A program made the position numbers and the translations under genes. A stretch of DNA of 57,126 nt from a virus. The DNA lies in IMG/VR virus record IMGVR_UViG_3300033180_000002, positions 1 to 57,126 of that record. One strand, given 5' to 3'. Of this stretch, positions 2,858-21,236 are shown in pieces (position 1 is the first letter of the stretch; each line of letters opens with the position of its first letter). The notes below the pieces were generated by a model. That model saw only the letters and a program-made list of their open reading frames with translations. It searched no databases and was not told where the DNA came from.

Positions 2858-4822
2858 TCATGGCGCGAGGTCCCCTCGGGTGACGTGCAGGGTGGACTTC
2901 AGCAGCTCCGGGTCGTGCGCGACGCCCCGGGTCATCAGCTCTGTGCAGTAGCCGCCCAGCAGCTCCTCTAAGGCGTCGGCGTCCACACCCAGTGCGGGGG
3001 CCTGCTCGCGGACGTGCGACCACGCACCGGCCAGCAGGGCGGGCACGCGGGAGCGGTCTGGGATGACCTGGGTATGCAGCTCATGCTTCGGTACCGCATA
3101 CCGGGCACGGGCCGGACCGGCGACGAGGCGGCCACCGGCCAGCTCCAGGGCGCGGCGCACGGCGCTGTCGGCGGCGTAGAACAGGGCGGAGCCGTCCAGG
3201 GTGCCGATGGACGCGGCGAGCTGCCCCAGCTTCTGCTTCTTCGGTGCCCCGACGTTGCCCTGCTCGGCGTCGGCGACGGACGGGAACTGCGGCAGGCCGC
3301 GCTGCCCGGCGTCGGCCGGTTCCGTACCAGCCGAGTCGTATCCGGGGTCGCCGGGCATCAGGTCACCCTGGCCAGGGAGCTGCGGCGGCGTGGGCGGGGC
3401 GGGCATGGAGATGTGCGGCAGCCCGAGGATCTTCTGTACCTCGGGGTCGCCCGCGTAGGCGGGCTGGGCCAGTACGAGGGCCTTGACCAGGCTGTACCGC
3501 AGCTCCTTGTCGTCGGGGGCGTCGTCGTCGGTGAAGGCGGCGTTGTCGCGGGCTGCCTTCGCGCTGATCAGCTCCTTCTCGGCGAACTGGAGTGCCTGGT
3601 CGGAGCGGTTGGGGCGGACGGTGAGGGCGGCGATGTCGAACCAGAGGGTCTTCTTCTCCGGGTTCTGGACGCCTGCGGCTTTGAGGGCGGGCTGGAAGTA
3701 GCCGAGGTTGAGGGCGTCGGCGAGCTGGATGAGTAGCGGCTCGATGTGGATCTTGATCGAGGACTCTTCGATCTGCCACGACGACCAGTGATTGCTGCCG
3801 CCCATGCCGGTCAGCACCTCGGGCGGGATGTCCAGCGACATCGCCATGCGCTCGACGGCGTCCTTACGCATCTGGGAGATGTGCTCCGAGATGGTCGAAT
3901 CGAACGTCAAGTGTTTGATCTTGTCCAGGGCCTCAGTGGCTACCTGGAGGATGATCGGCACCACGGCGGCGGCGTTGTCTCGCTGCTGCATCGACGTGGC
4001 CATGGTCCGCTGCAACAGCTCCGCGAAGCCCTCCACGCCCGTGCGCTGCGGCACCCCCGGCGTCTCCTGTGGCGGGCGCGGAAAGTCGATGTTGTCGGGC
4101 AGCAGCAGGATCCCGGCACCGGCAAGGCGGGAATCCAGCTCGGCGAACACCCGCTTTGTGCACTGCTCCAGCTCGCGCAGCACCGGCAGGATGGCCCGCA
4201 CGGTGGAGTCGGCCGCGTCGTGGCGGCGGGGGTGCGGGTTCCACACCCGGATCAGCAGATCCTTCTGCGGGTCCAGCTTGTAATTGCCCCCGCCGTGGGT
4301 GATGGACCGGCGGACCATGATGTCGTCGCCGCGCCGGAACACCTCCGACGACGAGCAGACATACCACTTGTCCTGGTCCGGGGTGCCGTCCTGACCGGTG
4401 TTCCGATACCCCTCGGCGACGATGAAGACATCCCCGGCGGTCATCATGTTGATGCCCATCAGGCGCTGGGCCTGGGCTTTCGCGGCGGGAGTGCCGAACA
4501 TGGTCTCGGCGATCATCTTCGCCTGGGCGTCGGCGGTCTCGTCGCCCACAGTGCCGTCGTCGGCGATGTCGGCCGCGTACATGCGGCAGCGGGAGATGGC
4601 GTTACCGATCCAGTTGACGACGAAGCGCATCTCCCCGCAGATGTCGTAGTGGCGCCACGCCTCCCACTGCCAGCGGTGGTCGCCCAGCTTGAACATCTGC
4701 CAGCTCGCGGCATCGCCGAGGTTGATGGGTACGGCGGCGGCGGTGAGGGCTGAAGGCCGCGTGCCGGGGCCGTCCAGCCCCCCGGCGGGGACCAGCTTCG
4801 GCTTCTTGGTCAACAGCCCCAC
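2858..4822 (-). CDS. portal protein
   Basis: 654 aa. The N-terminal pattern WQWEAWRHYDICGEMRFVVNWIGNAISRCRMY is typical of actinophage portals. It lies between the terminase region and MuF. Confidence 0.85.
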   Translation of the reverse strand: MGLLTKKPKLVPAGGLDGPGTRPSALTAAAVPINLGDAASWQMFKLGDHRWQWEAWRHYDICGEMRFVVNWIGNAISRCRMYAADIADDGTVGDETADAQAKMIAETMFGTPAAKAQAQRLMGINMMTAGDVFIVAEGYRNTGQDGTPDQDKWYVCSSSEVFRRGDDIMVRRSITHGGGNYKLDPQKDLLIRVWNPHPRRHDAADSTVRAILPVLRELEQCTKRVFAELDSRLAGAGILLLPDNIDFPRPPQETPGVPQRTGVEGFAELLQRTMATSMQQRDNAAAVVPIILQVATEALDKIKHLTFDSTISEHISQMRKDAVERMAMSLDIPPEVLTGMGGSNHWSSWQIEESSIKIHIEPLLIQLADALNLGYFQPALKAAGVQNPEKKTLWFDIAALTVRPNRSDQALQFAEKELISAKAARDNAAFTDDDAPDDKELRYSLVKALVLAQPAYAGDPEVQKILGLPHISMPAPPTPPQLPGQGDLMPGDPGYDSAGTEPADAGQRGLPQFPSVADAEQGNVGAPKKQKLGQLAASIGTLDGSALFYAADSAVRRALELAGGRLVAGPARARYAVPKHELHTQVIPDRSRVPALLAGAWSHVREQAPALGVDADALEELLGGYCTELMTRGVAHDPELLKSTLHVTRGDLAP

Positions 4823-5173: not shown

Positions 5174-5734
5174 TCAGCCCAGCAACTCTTCGATTGCTGC
5201 CGCGTACGTCTCCTGGTCGAAGATGACCAGGCGGACGACCTCCACGTCCGTGCTCGCGGAGCGCAGCGCCGTCAGGGCCTGCTTGACCGCGTCACCCTTG
5301 GGCCAGCCGTAGACACCGGCCGAGATGAGCGGGAAGGCGACCGTGCGCGCACCTACGACGTCGGCGGCGGACAGCGACCTGACGTAGCAGCTACGTAGCA
5401 CAGCCGAGCGGTCCTCGCGCGGGTTGAACATGGGGCCGACGGTGTGGACCACCCATCGTGCGGGGAGGGCGCCTGCGGTGGTGATCACGGCGTACCCGGC
5501 GGGGAGGCCGTTGGGCAGGTCGCGGCGCAGCTCCTTGCATTCCCGCAGGATGGCCGGGCCGCCCGCGTGGTGGATCGCCCCGTCCACTCCGCCGCCGCCG
5601 AGCAGGCTGGACTTAGCGGCGTTGACGATGACGTCGACCTTCTCGGTGGTGATGTCGCCCTGCACCAGCTCTATCCGCAGGGCCGGGCGGCGCCAGTTGC
5701 GCAGGCGTCGGGCAATCTTGCCGAATCCGAACAT
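5174..5734 (-). CDS. macrodomain protein (MacroD/YmdB-like ADP-ribose binding or hydrolase)
   Basis: Contains LVQGDITTEKVDVIVNAAKSSLLGGGGVDGAIHHAGGPAILRECK, the classic macro-domain signature. The ATG at 5734 overlaps the upstream stop (TGATG), whereas the ORF track start is 5752. Confidence 0.8.
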   Translation of the reverse strand: MFGFGKIARRLRNWRRPALRIELVQGDITTEKVDVIVNAAKSSLLGGGGVDGAIHHAGGPAILRECKELRRDLPNGLPAGYAVITTAGALPARWVVHTVGPMFNPREDRSAVLRSCYVRSLSAADVVGARTVAFPLISAGVYGWPKGDAVKQALTALRSASTDVEVVRLVIFDQETYAAAIEELLG

Positions 5735-5982
5735 CAGAACTTCACGGTCCATTCGCTGTCGGGGATGCTGGTGTCGGCGGCCATGATCTGAGCCAGCATG
5801 AGGGCAATTTCGCCGACCGGACGGCCGCTCATTATGGGGCCGAATGTGCGGGCCATTCCGACGGCGTCTCTACGGCTGAAGCCGTGCCAGCCGATCCGGC
5901 CGGTCGGGTCCTCAACGATGACGGAGTAAGTGGGCCGCCCGTACCAGGTGCGGCCTCGGCGGATGACGGTGATGGTCGGCAT
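5734..5982 (-). CDS. hypothetical protein (82 aa)
   Basis: The real part of the 403-aa ORF 5734..6945 is MPTITVIRRGRTWYGRPTYSVIVEDPTGRIGWHGF.... GAGGGAGG lies 6 nt upstream of the ATG at 5982. Confidence 0.6.
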   Translation of the reverse strand: MPTITVIRRGRTWYGRPTYSVIVEDPTGRIGWHGFSRRDAVGMARTFGPIMSGRPVGEIALMLAQIMAADTSIPDSEWTVKF

Positions 5983-6248: not shown

Positions 6249-6980
6249 CTAGTTGGCCACGGCCACATTGTCGGCGGCAGTGACCGTGGCCTCGTCGATG
6301 GGATCGGCGTTGGCGAGCTCGTACCCGGTGCGGCCGTTGTCCCAACGCCAGCCCGCCACGCGCTGCGCCGACATCTCGTCGAACGCCTCCACGGTCGTGC
6401 GCATGTCGGCCGCCACGGGGCGCGTGATCACGAACCTCTTGAGCGGCGGGATGGGGGCGAGCCCGTACGAGGCGAGCACCCGGTTGGCGCCCTGCTCGCA
6501 GTACTTGGGTCCGGCGATGTGCCCGAGCAGGATGATCTCGCGGAGCATGTCCAGGGTGGCCTGCATGGTGGCCGGGGCGTCCAGGTCGATCACGTTCGGG
6601 TCGGGGTCTTCCGGTCCGGCCGTGAACTTCGGGTCGTTCAAGGTGGCCTGCACGGACACCATCGTCTGCACGCCAGTGCTCACGCGGTCCTCGAACAGGG
6701 TCAGGGCCTCGGCGCGGGTTGCGGCCTGGATCCCGACCGACACCGTGCCGGAGACGGTGGCCTCCACGACGTACGTGCTGGTGAAGCCGATCAGGTTGGT
6801 GATGCCCAGCACGGTGAGTTTCTTGTTCGCCCACTCGGCGGTGATCTCCCCCGCGTTGCGCCAGTCCCGGGCCGTTGCGGCGATGTACTCGCGCAGGGCC
6901 AGCAGCTTGGTCGCCTCGTCCCGGTCCGCGTTGTTGGCCTCCCACTCGGTCCAGACAAGGGCCGGGTCTGCGTACTGCAT
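6249..6980 (-). CDS. hypothetical protein (243 aa)
   Basis: The ATG at 6980 (MQYADPALVWTEW...) is preceded by GGAGGAG. The upstream part of ORF 6249..7106 runs into a tRNA-like gene. Confidence 0.6.
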   Translation of the reverse strand: MQYADPALVWTEWEANNADRDEATKLLALREYIAATARDWRNAGEITAEWANKKLTVLGITNLIGFTSTYVVEATVSGTVSVGIQAATRAEALTLFEDRVSTGVQTMVSVQATLNDPKFTAGPEDPDPNVIDLDAPATMQATLDMLREIILLGHIAGPKYCEQGANRVLASYGLAPIPPLKRFVITRPVAADMRTTVEAFDEMSAQRVAGWRWDNGRTGYELANADPIDEATVTAADNVAVAN

Positions 6981-7058
6981 GTGATCTCCTCCAACGTGGT
7001 ATCTGTCGGCCCTCAGCTTACACGGTGCGCCGGGGGGCCGTCCAGCCGGAACGGACGG

Positions 7059-7146
7059 TGGCGAGGGCAGGATTTGAACCTGCGTCCCAGACCCCGATAG
7101 CCGCACTATCCGGGGTCCGTGCTCTAGGCCGCTGAGCTATCTCGCC
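7059..7146 (-). ncRNA. tRNA-like RNA (88 nt) with a 12-bp anticodon stem; apical loop GUGCGGC (would read anticodon GCG)
   Basis: Hand fold: GGCGAGA TA GCTC AGCGGCCTA GAGC A CGGACCCCGGATA GTGCGGC TATCGGGGTCTG GGAC GCAGG TTCAAAT CCTGC CCTCGCC A. The acceptor, D and T arms are canonical. The anticodon stem is about 7 bp too long and has one bulged G. Confidence 0.65.
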
Positions 7147-7279
7147 TGGAACCCTGCCGTGGAGGTACGCATTCGGACACCACCACAACGCCCGTGAGCC
7201 ACGATGGACCGCGTTCTGCGCCCAGCGCACGACAGGGTCAACAACATCCCCGGGGCGTAAGCCAGGGCGCCGGGGATCG

Positions 7280-7323
7280 TGGACCGGCGGGGAGTCGAAC
7301 CCCGTGATACCCAACTCCGGCCC
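7280..7323 (-). ncRNA. acceptor/T-arm minihelix (tRNA 3'-fragment-like) with a G3:U70 wobble
   Basis: Hand fold: GGGCCGG AGTTGGGTATCA CGGGG TTCGACT CCCCG CCGGTCC A. No D or anticodon arm could be found. It shares the 3' end CCGGTCCA with the element at 9138..9203. Confidence 0.3.
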
Positions 7324-7332
7324 GACCTTCAT

Positions 7333-7342
7333 GATCGAAAAC
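7333..7342 (+). repeat. AT-rich motif copy (GATCGAAAAC)
   Basis: Context CATGATCGAAAACGC; non-coding, 10 nt from the minihelix at 7280..7323. Confidence 0.8.
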
Positions 7343-7351
7343 GCCACGCTG

Positions 7352-7696
7352 TTATGTGCTGGCCTGCGGCCCCTGGACCTCGTCGACCAGCGGGGTGCCC
7401 GTGTCGGCGTGCTCCCGGTAGTTGTCGAGCAGATCGTCGAGGGCATACCAGACGCCCGTACGGCTGCCGTCGGACTCGCGGAACGAATCACGCCACCGCT
7501 TGATCCAGACGTCGATATCGCTGCCGCGCATTGGCCTGTGGGGCTCCACCAACGGCTGCGGCAGGGCGGGCGGGCGCCACCCCATGGTGAGAAGCGCCCG
7601 AATCGCAGCAAGAGCCTGAGAGTCGTCGAGTCCGGGGCGGATGGCCCGGACCTTCGTCGCGGCGATGCGTAGGGCTAAGTCGTCCATACCCCGCAC
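7352..7696 (-). CDS. hypothetical protein (114 aa) embedded in the tRNA-like array
   Basis: ORF track entry. The sequence looks protein-like (...VWYALDDLLDNYREHADTGTPLVDE...). An alternative ATG lies at 7687. Confidence 0.55.
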   Translation of the reverse strand: MRGMDDLALRIAATKVRAIRPGLDDSQALAAIRALLTMGWRPPALPQPLVEPHRPMRGSDIDVWIKRWRDSFRESDGSRTGVWYALDDLLDNYREHADTGTPLVDEVQGPQAST

Positions 7697-7700
7697 CCTT

Positions 7701-7841
7701 TCACTTGCTCTTCTTCGGGTTCTTCGCCTTGACCATCTTCTTGTCGCCGTACTTCGGTTTCTGCGCCTGCATGGGCGGGGTGGTCGCCCTGCTCGCCTTC
7801 TCCCCGGTGATGACGTTGCGGACGCTCTTGAAGAATCCCAC
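7701..7841 (-). CDS. hypothetical basic small protein (46 aa)
   Basis: Hand translation gives VGFFKSVRNVITGEKASRATTPPMQAQKPKYGDKKMVKAKNPKKSK*. AAGGGGG lies 7 nt upstream of the GTG. Confidence 0.4.
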   Translation of the reverse strand: MGFFKSVRNVITGEKASRATTPPMQAQKPKYGDKKMVKAKNPKKSK

Positions 7842-7843
7842 CG

Positions 7844-7966
7844 CTATGCCCCCTTCGGACCCCGTACGCGGTTGAGCCGGGCGGCGATGCTGTTGACCTG
7901 CTTGGTGCTGGCGTTGTTGCGAATGGCCTTGCCGAGTGCGGCCCAGATCTTGTCGACGTCGTTCAT
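7844..7966 (-). CDS. hypothetical small protein (40 aa)
   Basis: Hand translation gives MNDVDKIWAALGKAIRNNASTKQVNSIAARLNRVRGPKGA*. It has a strong GAGGAGGAG ribosome-binding site. Confidence 0.5.
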   Translation of the reverse strand: MNDVDKIWAALGKAIRNNASTKQVNSIAARLNRVRGPKGA

Positions 7967-8002
7967 GCCGTTCTCCTCCTCGTTTGGGGGGTTACGTGGT
8001 AG

Positions 8003-8064
8003 GTCGCCGGGACGCGAATCCACGCCGTGGCCACGGGGGATTCCCTCGGTGCATCCCGGCGACC
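8003..8064. other. hairpin closed by a perfect 11-bp stem
   Basis: GGTCGCCGGGA (8003-8013) pairs with TCCCGGCGACC (8054-8064). It lies between the 194-nt tRNA-like RNA and the next small gene. On the minus strand it is followed by TACCA. Confidence 0.55.
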
Positions 8065-8154
8065 CGCCGCCCAGCGTCCGGTAAGAGCCTTCGTCTGGGC
8101 GACAGCGGAGGGCTGAGGTCGGGGCGGGCCCGCTTTGCTCTCCTCCGCATCCGT

Positions 8155-8348
8155 GGTGACGGGTGGGCTCGAACCACCGGGGTCCTTCCGGCCTGGTCCC
8201 TGTCGGCCCGGATGATCTTCCGAGTTTTCAGGGGGGCCTTGGGGCCGCTCCTCCCCCTTCGCACCGGCTGAATCAGGCCGGGGGTCGCCGTTAGCCGTGC
8301 GCACGGCGCGGTCCGGCCGGGGGTGCTCTTCCTCTGAGCTACGTCACC
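8155..8348 (-). ncRNA. 194-nt tRNA-like RNA: canonical acceptor, D and T arms with about 144 nt in place of the anticodon/variable region
   Basis: The 5' part is GGTGACG TA GCTC AGAGGAA GAGC A, and the 3' part is GGTGG TTCGAGC CCACC CGTCACC A, giving a 7/7-bp acceptor. The insert holds several hairpins, a duplicated ACCCCCGGCC and a GGGGGAGGAG tract. Confidence 0.6.
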
Positions 8349-8466
8349 TTGTTCAGTTGTCGTGCCCACCTCGCCCGCCGGGCCGTCGCCATGACGGGCG
8401 AGGTGGTGCCATTTCTCGCTTGGGTCAGACACCGTCGTGAGTGAACAGCTAGGCATGGCTGCCTCC

Positions 8467-8536
8467 GTGCCGTGCGGGGAGTTGAACCCCGTCTTCCCCG
8501 GGTTAGGGGGCGCTCCACCTCCAGAGCTTCACGGCG
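8467..8536 (-). tRNA. tRNA-like gene (70 nt), C1:A72 mismatch, 4-bp anticodon stem, loop CUAACCC
   Basis: Hand fold: CGCCGTG AA GCTC TGGAGGTG GAGC G CCCC CTAACCC GGGG AAGA CGGGG TTCAACT CCCCG CACGGCA C. It is a paralogue of 8790..8861, and both are preceded by GTAC. Confidence 0.6.
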
Positions 8537-8789
8537 GTACTGAGCCAGCCCGGGTCTCCAGGGCATGTCCCCGGCTCACCGATTCTCCCGTGTCCGGGCG
8601 GTGGGTCCTTGCTGGCCTTTCCTGTTACCAGGCGCAACCTGTGCGCCACTACCCCCTGCGGGGCCTCCCGCTCTGCGGGCGTCACGGCCGTGTCAGGCCG
8701 TCCTCGGCGGCTTCCTGCGCGTCACAGCTGCTCACCCGGGAGGGTGGACTGTGTACGACCTGCGTGCAAGCCACGAAGCACTTTCGGTC

Positions 8790-8861
8790 GTGCCACGGGA
8801 GGACTCGAACCTCCGACTCAGGGCTTTGGGCCCCAGCTCTGGCCATCTGAGCTACGCGGCG
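8790..8861 (-). tRNA. tRNA-like gene (72 nt) with an initiator-like body (C1:A72, three G:C pairs in the anticodon stem) but loop CCCAAAG
   Basis: Hand fold: CGCCGCG TA GCTC AGATGGCCA GAGC TGGGG CCCAAAG CCCTG AGTC GGAGG TTCGAGT CCTCC CGTGGCA C. Position 33 is C rather than U, and there is no N26. Confidence 0.65.
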
Positions 8862-8954
8862 GTACTAGGCTTTCTTCCGCTTCGCGTGTCGACCCACTAG
8901 GCGGCGCCTGGCCTTTCCTTTTACCACCCCAGGTTGGCTATCTCCCGGGGGCCG

Positions 8955-9026
8955 TGACGTTGGACGGATTCGCACCGCCGACCTCCTGCCGTGAGGCAGG
9001 TGCTCTATCTGCTGAGCTACAACGTC
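8955..9026 (-). tRNA. tRNA-like gene (72 nt), Val(CAC)-like, with a 6-nt anticodon loop
   Basis: Hand fold: GACGTTG TA GCTC AGCAGATA GAGC A CCTGC CUCACG GCAGG AGGTC GGCGG TGCGAAT CCGTC CAACGTC A. The loop is one nt short, and the T-loop is TGC instead of TTC. Confidence 0.7.
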
Positions 9027-9137
9027 GGCCGCTTACTCAAGGCGACCACTCGGGTTGACGCCAGGGTGAGTGTCGGCAGTTTCCCGCATTGGGCCAATGG
9101 CCTTCCAGGTAGTGCCGTCCTCCAGCGTTCCTTCGCG

Positions 9138-9203
9138 TGGACCGGTGGCATCGAAGCCAGCAGGCGTGCGGGCCGCACATCTTCAAAACACCCTGCCCGG
9201 TCC
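9138..9203 (-). ncRNA. 66-nt tRNA-like element (7-bp acceptor, T-like arm with a 6-nt loop, no clear D or anticodon arm)
   Basis: Sequence: GGACCGGGCAGGGTGTTTTGAAGATGTGCGGCCCGCACGCCTGCTGGCTTCGATGCCACCGGTCCA. The ends GGACCGG/CCGGTCC pair perfectly. Confidence 0.3.
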
Positions 9204-9344
9204 CGGCCGCCCGCATATGTTCGGGTCATCTGTCGGCCGTCGTGCTGGTCGTGGCCTCATCCCCCGAGGCGTGGGGGCATCGTCCAGCACTTGCACCTGT
9301 GGTCGTCTTGGGGTGTCGCACCCGGTGCCCCGGTGCGTCTTCCG

Positions 9345-9412
9345 TGGGAAGAGCAGGAGTCGAACCTGCGTCTCTGTGCCGAAGCGTGGCTCTACCGTTG
9401 AGCTATCTCCCC
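9345..9412 (-). ncRNA. tRNA-like RNA (68 nt) with a truncated anticodon arm
   Basis: Hand fold: GGGGAGA TA GCTC AACGGTA GAGC [CACGCTTCGGCACAGAGAC] GCAGG TTCGACT CCTGC TCTTCCC A. Only 19 nt sit where about 22 are expected, and no 5-bp/7-nt anticodon hairpin can form. Confidence 0.55.
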
Positions 9413-9455
9413 GGGGCGCGGCATCCGAGCTCCTATCAGATGCCGCGCGGCCTGG

Positions 9456-9638
9456 TTACTTCTTGGGCTTGTCGCCGCCCTTGAAGACCACGACGATCTT
9501 GCCGAGCAGGGACTTGTCGGAGGTGCGGCCGTCACCAGCCGAGGCGCCGTGGCCACGGGGGTGACCTGTGCCGCGACCGAACCAGCGGTTGCTGGACTTG
9601 CCGGATTCGTTGCCGAGGTGCCGGGTCTTGTTGGTCAT
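9456..9638 (-). CDS. hypothetical basic protein (60 aa)
   Basis: ORF track entry. GGAGGAG lies upstream of the ATG. Confidence 0.55.
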   Translation of the reverse strand: MTNKTRHLGNESGKSSNRWFGRGTGHPRGHGASAGDGRTSDKSLLGKIVVVFKGGDKPKK

Positions 9639-9673
9639 CGGGTCTCCTCCGTTGCGGGCGGGCGGGGGGCCGG

Positions 9674-9877
9674 TCAGTAGGTGGGGTGCTGCTCCGTCTC
9701 GACCGTGAAGTCGACGCTGGTGCGCTTGACGGCGGTGGTGGCGACCTTCACCGGGTCGAGGTGGATGCTGCCGTCGTCGTCCTTCTCGGCGGTGTAGAAC
9801 TCGATGCCCTTGTCCACGATGCCGTCCAGGTTGACGCGGCCACGGGCATCGACGCGGTACAGGGTCAATTCGGGCAT
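9674..9877 (-). CDS. SpoVT/AbrB-like (swapped-hairpin) small DNA-binding protein, putative
   Basis: VDARGRVNLDGIVDKGIEFYTAEKDDDGSIHLDPVKV resembles the AbrB-fold pattern. GGAGGAA lies upstream of the ATG. Confidence 0.4.
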   Translation of the reverse strand: MPELTLYRVDARGRVNLDGIVDKGIEFYTAEKDDDGSIHLDPVKVATTAVKRTSVDFTVETEQHPTY

Positions 9878-11235: not shown

Positions 11236-12714
11236 CTATCCGTACGCCGAGCTGGAGGGCATCCAGTCGTTGACGGACGGGGCGGCGATGCGGACCAGCC
11301 CCTTCTCTTTGCCCATCAGGAACAGTCCGGCCTGCACGAGGGCGTCGATGCGGTCGGGGCTCTTCGCATCCTCGGGGACCCACGTACAGCATTGGTCCTC
11401 CAGCTCGACGAAGGTGCCGACGTGGTGCCAGCGGTTCTGCTCGTAGCGGGAGGCGACCGGTTCGGCGCGCAGCTTCTTCCCGGCTAGGGAGGTGACTTCC
11501 TTGACCGGCGGCGGACCAGGGGGGAACAGGCAGCCTTGGCACCCCTCGTCCGGGTCGTCCTTGTCCGGGCCGGGGCAGCCCGGCTCGTGCTCCTTCTGCA
11601 TCTCCGCGTAGGCGTCGGTGACGACCTGCATGAGCCACTTCTTGCCCATGTTCGTTTCGATGATCAGCCAGGTGGCGTCGTAGCGCAGGAACATCTCCCA
11701 GGCGCGGCGGGCGGCGGCGTGCCCGACAATCTTCATCGTCCAGTCGGCTAGGACGTAGTCGTCGCCGTTGTAGCCGCGCCCGGCTGCGATCAGGCCGGTC
11801 TCGTCGCCCGCGCCAGTGGCGCCGGGGTCCATGGAGATGACGCGCATCTTCAGTTCGGGCAGGTCGGCAGCCTTGATGCGGTTGTTTTCGATCATGGTGC
11901 GGTTCCACAGTGCACCCTCGATCTCTTCGAGGAGGTGCCCGTACAACTCCTGCAACCCGGCGCGGGTGCCCTCGTAGATCTTCTTGAGCTGGTCGACGAC
12001 CTTCCGCGACAGGTTCATGATGTTGTCGAAGATCGAGCCGGTGGTGATGACGACCGTGCCGTCCGTCTCGTGCTGCCACTCGATCAGCAGCTTGATCGGC
12101 TTCGGGGTGGTGGTGACCACGGCGCGGGGGTGGTCGTCGATGAGCGGGGCGCGCAGCGACGGCAGGATGCCCTCGTACCAGGCGCTGTACGTGTAGCGCC
12201 ACTTGGCCAGCTCGTCGGCCCACAGCCCGGCCAGGTTGAAGCCTCGGCCGACGTCGGCGTTGTCGGCGCCCTCGAAGTAGATGACCTGACCGGACGTGAA
12301 TTCGATCATGAGCTTGGGCGACTTCCAGTACCGGAAGTCCTTGCCCTTCACGAGGCCCATGCGGTGCAGGATCGACAGGATGCCGGAGTTGCCCTCAAGG
12401 CAGGCGGTGCGGCAGTCGTTCAGCGTCTCGGCGATCACCAGCCACTCGGTGCGCTGGCCGAAGGCATCCACGGGATGGCGGAACACCCGGTCGAGGAGGT
12501 CTTCGGCGCCGGTGCGCGTTTTGCCCCAGCCGCGACCGGAGCGGATCAGCCAGACCAGCCAGTCCCCGGGCGGCTTGAACTGCTCGGGCCGCCCGACCCA
12601 CCACCAAGCGCCCTTCTGGATCTCCTCCAGCGTCTCGCGGTTCTGGGCCTGGAGCCATTGACGGCGCAGCGCGGGCGGCAGCAGGGCCAGCTTCTGGGCG
12701 GCGGACAGACTCAT
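11236..12714 (-). CDS. terminase large subunit
   Basis: 492 aa. It has the Walker A-like motif IRSGRGWGKTRTGAED, a C-terminal nuclease-like region, and the expected size and position. Confidence 0.85.
   Translation of the reverse strand: MSLSAAQKLALLPPALRRQWLQAQNRETLEEIQKGAWWWVGRPEQFKPPGDWLVWLIRSGRGWGKTRTGAEDLLDRVFRHPVDAFGQRTEWLVIAETLNDCRTACLEGNSGILSILHRMGLVKGKDFRYWKSPKLMIEFTSGQVIYFEGADNADVGRGFNLAGLWADELAKWRYTYSAWYEGILPSLRAPLIDDHPRAVVTTTPKPIKLLIEWQHETDGTVVITTGSIFDNIMNLSRKVVDQLKKIYEGTRAGLQELYGHLLEEIEGALWNRTMIENNRIKAADLPELKMRVISMDPGATGAGDETGLIAAGRGYNGDDYVLADWTMKIVGHAAARRAWEMFLRYDATWLIIETNMGKKWLMQVVTDAYAEMQKEHEPGCPGPDKDDPDEGCQGCLFPPGPPPVKEVTSLAGKKLRAEPVASRYEQNRWHHVGTFVELEDQCCTWVPEDAKSPDRIDALVQAGLFLMGKEKGLVRIAAPSVNDWMPSSSAYG
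11884..11893 (-). repeat. AT-rich motif copy (GATCGAAAAC)
   Basis: Context CATGATCGAAAACAA; within the large terminase in sense, read M-I-E-N. Confidence 0.8.
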
Positions 12715-21020: not shown

Positions 21021-21112
21021 GGGCCTGTAGCTCAACGGCAGAGCGCGTCATCCCACCGGGCATCACCCGGGTTCGGCAAGACGAGGCGCGGGTTCGACTC
21101 CCGCCAGGACCA
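21021..21112 (+). ncRNA. tRNA-like RNA (92 nt) with an expanded, irregular anticodon arm
   Basis: Hand fold: GGGCCTG TA GCTC AACGGCA GAGC G [42 nt: CGTC A TCCCA CCGGG CATCA CCCGG GTTCGGCAA GACG AGGC] GCGGG TTCGACT CCCGC CAGGACC A. It has a G3:A70 mismatch. Confidence 0.55.
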
Positions 21113-21236
21113 CGCACAGACCCCCGACCTATCCAGGCCGGATGACCCGGGGGTTTCTCAGCCGACGCCGGTTCGGGTGCACACCGGCACGGGCGGCCTG
21201 GAAGGCGACATCCAGGCCGCCCGCCATCCCGAAGTC

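Follow-up and report, generated by a model that had tools for sequence, protein, structure and literature searches.

A 194-nt tRNA-shaped RNA with two covarying inserts, probably stable and non-decoding, in the genome of an uncultured siphophage

The stretch of DNA analysed here (the window) comprises positions 1 to 57,126 of the IMG/VR virus record IMGVR_UViG_3300033180_000002, 57,126 nucleotides (nt) in all, and holds on its minus strand, at 8155-8348, a 194-nt RNA built on the plan of a transfer RNA (tRNA). The RNA combines a complete tRNA frame with covarying inserts at both of the positions at which a tRNA tolerates extension, and has no usable anticodon loop. Judged from sequence comparison, its probable role is that of a stable RNA that does not decode and whose type has not been described before. 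The explanation given slightly more than even weight is that of a tRNA-derived, non-decoding 'chassis' RNA, which would be processed by the host and would display conserved loops. RNA position p corresponds to window coordinate 8349-p, the RNA reading 5' to 3' on the minus strand, to which the coordinates below refer unless a strand is given.

Fold and covariation of the 194-nt RNA

The extent of the RNA (8155-8348) was set from the sequence, its homologues and covariation. The canonical tRNA ends that the original prediction had described from the letters alone were borne out. The acceptor stem pairs GGUGACG (nt 1-7, 8342-8348) with CGUCACC (nt 188-194, 8155-8161) at 7 of 7 positions, U8 and A9 lie between its 5' strand and the D arm GCUC-AGAGGAA-GAGC (nt 10-24, 8325-8339; with A14, G15, G18 and G19), and the T arm GGUGG-UUCGAGC-CCACC (nt 171-187, 8162-8178) has a loop of the GTPsiC type. 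A26 comes after the D arm, ahead of the sequence CCCCC. The discriminator A (A73) is 8154, CCA is not encoded and the trailer is CGGAUGC. The tRNA features kept are thus the 7-base-pair (bp) acceptor, U8, A14, G15, G18-G19, the D stem, A44-G45-G46, C48, the T arm and A73.

The prediction that about 144 nt replace the anticodon and variable regions held as to the extra core, which is real, and failed as to its being one block. The stretch of 146 nt that separates the D arm from the T arm is split into two inserts, and a 5-bp anticodon stem is kept, in which CCCCC (nt 26-30, 8319-8323) pairs with GGGGG (nt 92-96, 8253-8257) with the support of covariation. What this stem lacks is a closing 7-nt loop that contains U33 and an anticodon: a 61-nt segment (nt 31-91) stands in its place and forms a three-way junction. 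Its first branch is the P2-H1 rod (nt 31-66, 8283-8318), identified by RNAalifold and covariation, in which helix P2 (GGCCG/CGACC) extends the anticodon stem with no nucleotide between and leads into hairpin H1. H1 is the predicted hairpin GCCGU-GCGC-ACGGC (nt 42-55, 8294-8307), with compensatory changes in three of five pairs, and its apical hexamer UGCGCA (8298-8303) is self-complementary and invariant in the homologues. Hairpin H2 (nt 68-85, 8264-8281), likewise foreseen, has a 5-bp stem CCGGC/GCCGG, compensatory in four of five pairs, and in the window an 8-nt loop CUGAUUCA (8269-8276). The commonest H2 loop in the homologues is the 7-nt C-UGAUCA, which resembles an anticodon loop (C32, U33, GAU, C37, A38); variants are CCGAUCA (L020 and L131; related loci are cited by such labels) and CGGUACA (L004). 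The junction is closed by the strand UGCGAA (nt 86-91, 8258-8263), of which GCGAA is kept in 10 of 11 homologues and which may be a relic of the anticodon loop (U33-GCG-A37-A38).

The second insert occupies the expanded variable region (nt 97-170, 8179-8252), whose structure was taken from independent folds of seven homologues. The region runs from AGG (positions 44-46) through an irregular rod (V1, V2, V3, H4) to ACCCC ending in C48, so that the insert (about 64-70 nt) forms a rod of some 20 bp, is flanked by A44-G45-G46 and C48 and exits at the point where class II variable arms emerge. Hairpin H4 (CUCGGA-AGAUCA-UCCGGG, nt 125-142, 8207-8224), the apex of this rod, contains the predicted CGGA-AGAUCA-UCCG hairpin and is supported by stem variants. 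Two other elements of the original prediction were present as sequence and are read differently here. The duplicated ACCCCCGGCC occurs twice (nt 25-34 and 64-73), but the repeat itself is not kept in the homologues (its copies are identical at 8 of 10 positions in L012 and about 6 of 10 in L003); its origin is the likeness between the 5' strands of two helices. The Shine-Dalgarno-like GGGGGAGGAG is not a ribosome-binding site, being the 3' strand of the anticodon stem together with the usual AGG start of the variable loop.

Homologues were collected from 25 related IMG/VR loci found by a terminase search, the family then being assembled using BLAST, a tRNA-end scanner and two pattern scans. 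It has eleven distinct members, the window included, all in one clade of uncultured, high-GC siphophages of about 57 kb whose terminases are 74-87% identical. Long forms (193-202 nt) are found in the window, L012, L013, L020, L004, L131, L135 and L139, and short forms (123-125 nt), without the variable-region insert, in L003, L025 and L138. The payload pattern, that is the pattern of the inserted part, gave about 100 chance matches in IMG/VR, the true ones being confined to the same clade, and 19 matches in a metagenome scan, 7 of them true and all of the same clade.

Ten distinct sequences, with the variable insert trimmed, were aligned for the covariation analysis called for by the original prediction. 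The structure was set by inspection, RNAalifold having independently recovered most of the same helices. Pairing was found in 96.7% of cells, as against 87.7% in shuffled alignments (none of 500 as high) and 35-57% in slid controls, and 12 pairs showed compensatory changes on both sides; the fold is therefore supported, and the arms are conserved as RNA beyond chance. The acceptor pair 3:70 occurs in four types (C-G, G-C, A-U and U-A), two of the five anticodon-stem pairs are compensatory, pair 51:63 of the T arm covaries between A-U and U-A, and the D stem shows no variation across the 10 sequences. For the variable arm alone, MAFFT and RNAalifold gave a poor alignment and individual folds were used: the rod was the minimum free energy (MFE) structure in four of the seven homologues folded singly and near-optimal in the others. 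Its helix V2 varies as GGCC/GGCC, GGUUC/GAACC and GCC/GGU, and the H4 stem as CUCGGA/UCCGGG, CCCGGA/UCCGGG, CCUGGA/UCCAGG, GCCGGG/CCCGGU, CCCGGC/GCCGGG and ACCGGC/GCCGGU, with GAUC in the H4 loop of seven of the eight long forms (the exception is L139). The comparative structure of the window RNA has an energy of -80.9 kcal/mol, its MFE being -88.7.

G-U pairs occur in H1 of L012, L131 and L003, on this strand only, which indicates that it is the RNA of this strand, as opposed to duplex DNA, that is under selection. These pairs, which are A-C mismatches on the opposite strand, speak against the explanation that the palindromes (GCCGTGCGCACGGC and the TGATCA hairpin) bind dimeric proteins or serve as cruciform, origin or packaging signals, the likeness to a tRNA being incidental. 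In favour of a DNA-level element are the perfect 14-bp DNA palindrome formed by H1, similar spacer-less palindromes in the locus L006 and in the rod downstream of the RNA (GTGGCCAC), and the position of the cluster between the terminase and portal genes. However, the full tRNA frame is retained with its tertiary-contact nucleotides, and H2 lacks symmetry, since a further C precedes UGAUCA on the 5' side. Elsewhere in the window TGATCA occurs 24 times, never in a hairpin, and neither GATC (over-represented) nor TGCGCA is avoided or otherwise special in the genome. This explanation is accordingly given hardly any credence.

The Rfam covariance-model scan that had likewise been called for left the core unaccounted for by any family. 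Rfam 15, including its models for tRNA, transfer-messenger RNA (tmRNA), group I and II introns and small ribozymes, gave nothing at 8155-8348 at gathering thresholds or at E<=10, the latter search covering 6800-9700, and no small self-cleaving ribozyme (hammerhead, twister, pistol, hatchet or HDV-like) was matched in 6800-9700 at E<=10. As had been argued, the inserts (61 nt and about 70 nt) are too short for a group I intron, which has a catalytic core of P3-P9 and is usually at least about 200 nt long, and there was no Intron_gpI match at E<=10. The denial of a tmRNA was also upheld: ARAGORN called neither tRNA nor tmRNA at 8155-8348, neither Rfam nor ARAGORN matched the tmRNA model or its pseudoknot series at the locus, pair 3:70 is U-A here and C-G, G-C or A-U in the homologues, never G-U, and the overlapping open reading frames (ORFs), which could have held a tag frame, lack a coding signal. 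Their third-position GC is 0.62-0.74, against 0.93 in the terminase gene of this 68% GC genome, and since they lack this bias the region is taken to be non-coding. No match was returned when the 2.9-kb cluster (megablast) and the RNA (blastn) were compared with 50,697 GenBank phages. Among 185,579 bacterial and archaeal genomes there were 14 matches, all due to chance, with at most 15.7 bits for the payload model; there are therefore no prophage copies in these genomes and no host assignment. Consensus scans turned up nothing promoter-like, and sites resembling terminators were about as frequent as chance predicts. In the literature no equivalent of a 194-nt tRNA-shaped RNA was found described.

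Exchangeable slot, proposed role and competing explanations

The RNA lies in an orthologous slot, defined by the scaffold GGNGACG-UA-GCUC...GGAGG-UUCRAGU-CCUCC-CGUCNCC-A and a conserved downstream RNA, that is filled differently in related phages. In L017 the slot holds a tRNA-Arg(CCU) accepted by ARAGORN, in L021 a 59-nt element from which the anticodon arm is gone and which is apparently a deletion derivative of the short form, in L018 an 82-nt form with a long stem and an AGUACU-containing loop, and in L009 a 103-nt form whose sole hairpin is H2-like with UUGAUCA. A genuine tRNA, perhaps one for arginine, is the most likely ancestor of the family; six of the eleven members have U-GCG-A-A as their junction strand. 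L006 has a payload of like architecture, a rod with a perfect palindrome and a hairpin with a UUGAUCAA loop, on another scaffold (21.9 bits with the payload model R1, E=0.019). For many other slots of the clade ARAGORN gives 'anticodons' of two or four bases, the anticodon domains ranging from absent to about 90 nt, and in many of these tRNA-like genes the loop measures 4-6 nt, the stem is very long or the arm is missing.

The surroundings of the slot are conserved irrespective of payload, the leader ACAACUGAACA and the trailer CGGAUGC-hairpin-UGCUGUC being kept around it. In the window, upstream comparison placed the conserved 5' leader ACAACUGAACAA at 8349-8360, after a strong GC-rich hairpin, and a conserved structured RNA follows directly 3' of the 194-nt RNA (7990-8153), linked to the slot in 12 of 15 loci with any payload. 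This downstream RNA consists of CGGAUGC, a covarying hairpin and UGCUGUC...GGCGGGUCGCC...GUGGCCAC...GGCGACCUACCAC, and forms a long rod whose apex GUGGCCAC is a perfect palindrome and whose inner helix covaries (GAAUCC/GGAUUC, AAAACC/GGUUUU, CGCCU/AGGCG). It stops about 20 nt ahead of the Shine-Dalgarno (SD) sequence and ATG of a small ORF starting at 7966 and may be a regulatory element of a 5' untranslated region (UTR). In L013 (14286-14550) and L004 (13917-14180) its place directly after the RNA is taken by an ORF whose N terminus (MRTKFTAALLMLAASLGLL...) resembles a signal peptide.

The 194-nt RNA should be unable to decode, because it has no 7-nt anticodon loop at the right distance from the acceptor end and because H2 branches off the junction 5-6 bp too far from the elbow. 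A decoding product could arise by excision, however, if the gene were an intron-containing tRNA from which the anticodon insert, and perhaps the variable rod, is removed, most simply to give a tRNA-Arg with the loop xU-GCG-AA. The 7 nt ahead of the 3' anticodon-stem strand fit U33, GCG, A37 and A38 (GUGCGAA in the window, L012, L020 and L131, UUGCGAA in L139, AUGCGAA in L138), the GCGAA of this strand is the part kept in all but one homologue, the same slot of L017 is called as a tRNA-Arg(CCU), and a 10-nt direct repeat flanks part of the window insert. Position 33 is, however, occupied by G in two members (L003, L025) and by A in a third (L013), a 61-nt insert is far below group I size and matches no Rfam intron or ribozyme, and a bulge-helix-bulge splice motif is absent, because in the covariation-supported structure the anticodon stem passes into P2 without a bulge. 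The host also looks bacterial, as judged from SD sites, a peptidoglycan-binding domain and terminase relatives mainly in actinobacteriophages; to our knowledge, bacteria lack the archaeal/eukaryal splicing endonuclease, and no RNA ligase or endonuclease domain is among the families reported for 63 phage proteins. As the variable rod would need a second excision and invariant apical loops are rare in introns, this explanation is considered doubtful, with a small probability.

The preferred explanation, that of a host-processed chassis, starts from the enzymes of tRNA maturation. RNase Z and the CCA-adding enzyme read the acceptor/T-arm/elbow half alone. RNase P, too, recognises this half and not the anticodon (PMC4919913). 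The RNA would be co-transcribed with the neighbouring tRNA-like genes, cleaved at G1 by host RNase P, trimmed after A73 by RNase Z or exonucleases and finished by the CCA-adding enzyme, and a stable L-shaped particle would build up because these enzymes read that half alone. The working parts would be the displayed apical loops, UGCGCA (H1), C-UGAUCA (H2) and xGAUCA (H4). Contacts of the payload through loop-loop base pairing are favoured, either as self-association via the self-complementary hexamers (UGCGCA, UGAUCA) or with a putative host or phage RNA. Equivalent loops that differ in sequence are often still self-complementary (GUAC in L004, AGUACU in L018, GACGUC and UUGAUCAA in L006) and therefore point, weakly, to pairing between copies as in the ROOL and GOLLD RNAs; self-association of RNA copies is thus only suggested. 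Pairing of the UGAUC loop with the 3' tail of 16S ribosomal RNA (rRNA; GAUCA) is an idea only, a match of 5 nt that is inseparable from self-complementarity.

A more specific version of the chassis idea has H2 as an anticodon-arm mimic that captures a tRNA-binding host factor. As an explanation in its own right, the RNA would be a decoy or inhibitor of a host tRNA-handling factor (a nuclease that cuts anticodons, or else an enzyme or toxin that targets the acceptor end), with H2, and possibly H4, as the mimic. The 5-bp stem of H2 and its mostly 7-nt loop with C32, U33 and A38 (but C37) fit this, as do the intact upper half and the hypervariable anticodon domains on conserved scaffolds across related phages, which an arms race predicts. 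Host tRNA nucleases have been proposed to exert pressure on the evolution of actinophage tRNAs, decoys not being discussed there (PMC10264068). Against a decoy, its target is purely hypothetical and the host is not assigned, the GAU-C-A loop is conserved within the family instead of being diversified, and a stoichiometric decoy would need to bind an enzyme without turnover. The decoy is therefore regarded as distinctly unlikely.

Besides acting as a chassis, the tRNA half probably has a second, simpler role as a processing signal that would free the downstream conserved RNA and 5' UTR, a role made likely by the conservation of leader, trailer and downstream RNA. It is unlikely that this is its only role, in other words that the tRNA half merely punctuates the transcript for RNase P and RNase Z cuts freeing the flanking RNAs and the 5' UTR, while the inserts are baggage in a decaying tRNA gene. 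The persistence of the upper half where the anticodon arm has been lost (L021, 59 nt) or swapped for unrelated hairpins (L018, L009) agrees with punctuation alone, and so do the leader and trailer retained with any payload and the many tRNA-like genes of the clade with short loops, overlong stems or no arm. However, 12 compensatory pairs, with UGCGCA invariant and UGAUCA nearly so, would not be expected of baggage at 74-87% terminase identity, and the payload architecture recurs on a second scaffold (L006). Nor is the payload a dispersed repeat, as its model, run over 540 kb of DNA from related phages, matched in tRNA slots only; on the same ground it was rejected that the payload is a mobile palindromic element of the dispersed kind.

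Several points weigh against the chassis explanation itself. The folding energy is no better than that of shuffled sequences (z = -1.53). The palindromes on which loop pairing would rely are broken by the window H2 loop (UGAUUCA) and absent from the H4 loop of L139 (UUAGCG), and an intramolecular H2-H4 kiss was rejected, complementarity being lost in L004 and L139. The conserved loops are not independent observations, because all homologues share one clade, and the inserts are dispensable for the role of the upper half, because in L021 the slot has no payload. The phage, which comes from soil, is uncultured and seen in metagenomic contigs alone, and the partner of the loops, be it protein or RNA, is purely hypothetical.

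Phage tRNA genes are usually seen as helpers of codon usage or as replacements for tRNAs destroyed by defence systems, and yet most 'tRNA' genes of this clade cannot decode, their upper halves being conserved and their anticodon domains exchanged, enlarged or lost. The 194-nt RNA shows this most clearly. A wider proposal, put forward tentatively and at well below even probability, is that the clade uses tRNA upper halves as a display-and-processing chassis with interchangeable structured payloads, excised and stabilised by the tRNA machinery of the host. The payload of the 194-nt RNA would act through its self-complementary loops, by RNA-only dimerisation or oligomerisation or by trapping a host RNA or a tRNA-binding defence factor; if true, this would be a new class of phage effector RNA. 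The modular pattern of slot and payload is the genuinely new aspect, the RNA itself being akin to the tRNA-like stable RNAs of phage tRNA clusters, and at less than 200 nt it offers a tractable object for the role of non-decoding tRNA mimics during infection.

Neighbouring tRNA-like elements and genomic setting

The RNA lies within a block of about 2.4 kb between the terminase and portal genes, packed with tRNA-like genes on the same strand (7059-7146, 8467-8536, 8790-8861, 8955-9026 and 9345-9412, all minus). Those at 8790-8861 and 8467-8536 belong, with their upstream parts at 8862-8935 and 8537-8640, to paralogous units on the minus strand, each comprising a motif GGUAA(A/C)AGGAAAGGCCAG, 60-90 nt of structured sequence and a tRNA-like gene with a C1:A72 mismatch. 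The anticodon arms of these genes are non-canonical, with a 5-nt loop or a 4-bp stem with the loop CUAACCC, and the units are kept in L003 and L007. Four more tRNA-like genes unable to decode normally are located at 7059-7146 (minus), 8955-9026 (minus), 9345-9412 (minus) and 21021-21113 (plus), and include a 13-bp anticodon stem with the loop UGCGG, a 5-bp stem with the tetraloop UCAC, a 68-nt form with a stub for an anticodon arm, and a 30-nt insert with an encoded CCA. At 7277-7323 (minus) there is a 47-nt minihelix of acceptor plus T arm, GGGCCGG...CCGGUCC-A, with the alanine identity elements G3:U70 and A73. It matches both ends of the tmRNA model weakly, with nothing between (26.5 bits, under the gathering score), and may be a chargeable minihelix-Ala or a stand-alone tRNA-like domain of tmRNA.

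Another payload type with covarying stems was found in the GGGGAGA slot of related phages (L002 13476-13577, L005 13567-13663, L009 12861-12958, L025 2161-2261). The apical loop GUUACGAC, which is conserved, exactly matches the reverse complement of GUCGUAAC, a universal segment of 16S rRNA that serves as the 1492R primer site; many loops were examined and the match could be due to chance. Unrelated IMG/VR phage contigs, some of them low in GC, also have unusual tRNA-like genes whose 3' half is similar (L165 3550-3600; L162, L169; L166; L167), among them a 51-nt minihelix and forms of 72-82 nt with aberrant D or anticodon regions, and non-decoding tRNA mimics may thus be widespread in phages.

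The window is a phage genome, with genes for the large terminase (11236-12714), portal (2858-4822) and a Mu-F-like head protein (740-2176), all on the minus strand, and with major head, tail and tape-measure families also matched among its proteins. The terminase is at most 36% identical to proteins of cultured phages, the matching records being mostly of Gordonia, Microbacterium and Arthrobacter phages. The host appears to be bacterial; SD-preceded starts, a peptidoglycan-binding domain and the strong avoidance of CTAG (20 observed in the window, 170 expected) fit a bacterial host of high GC. GATC and TCGA are about 2.3-fold over-represented in the window. Pfam and PHROG overviews of the 63 phage proteins gave head, tail, Macro, NUDIX, DUF1810, WDGH, ERF and methyltransferase families, and among the families reported there was no ligase, endonuclease, aminoacyl-tRNA synthetase or CCA enzyme. 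The Macro domain protein is encoded at 5174-5752 (minus) and the NUDIX, DUF1810 and WDGH matches lie elsewhere in the window, a set that suggests counter-defence related to ADP-ribose or NAD.

Comparison with known structured RNAs

With canonical and class II tRNAs (RF00005) the RNA shares the acceptor, D, anticodon-stem and T helices, U8, A14, G18-G19, G15:C48, A44-G45-G46 and a TPsiC-type loop; it is unlike them in its length of 194 nt, its variable region of about 74 nt and its lack of a 7-nt anticodon loop. A tmRNA likewise joins a tRNA-like module of acceptor and T arm to a large non-tRNA body and can be encoded by phages, but the D arm and anticodon stem of the present RNA are tRNA-like, and G3:U70, the tag frame and the pseudoknot series are lacking.

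In the engineered tRNA scaffold, a structured RNA takes the place of the anticodon arm and cellular tRNA enzymes process and stabilise the chimera. That scaffold is man-made, whereas the present RNA is natural and has a second insert in the variable loop; if it is processed and stable, it would be a natural counterpart and would represent a compact new family of structured phage RNAs. The engineered version was developed for recombinant RNA expression (PMC3401473, PMC3753655).

The ROOL and GOLLD RNAs are phage RNAs that lie near tRNA islands and form homo-oligomers via kissing loops with no known protein partner (PMC12286853). At 500-800 nt or longer they are structurally unrelated to the present RNA, whose locus at 8155-8348 gave no Rfam match and whose self-assembly is hypothetical.

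The likeness to the stable RNAs of the T4 tRNA cluster, pointed out in the original prediction, is apt. T4 rnaC and rnaD (species 1 and 2) are phage stable RNAs of about 120-140 nt that lie in a tRNA gene cluster and have no assigned function, and the present RNA similarly lies on the same strand as the other members of a phage tRNA cluster. T4 rnaC (139 nt) has a canonical T arm (CCGGG-UUCGAAU-CCCGG), two long hairpins between its ends, and ends that could form an imperfect acceptor-like helix of 7 positions with two U-U mismatches. It has no recognisable D arm or anticodon stem, whereas the present RNA keeps the full tRNA frame and adds two inserts; the two share no sequence similarity and differ in internal architecture. 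T4 rnaC is the nearest precedent, common descent being unlikely. The species 1 and 2 RNAs have been unexplained since the 1970s, and the present RNA offers a way to approach both their possible purpose and the question whether short phage RNAs self-assemble like ROOL and GOLLD.

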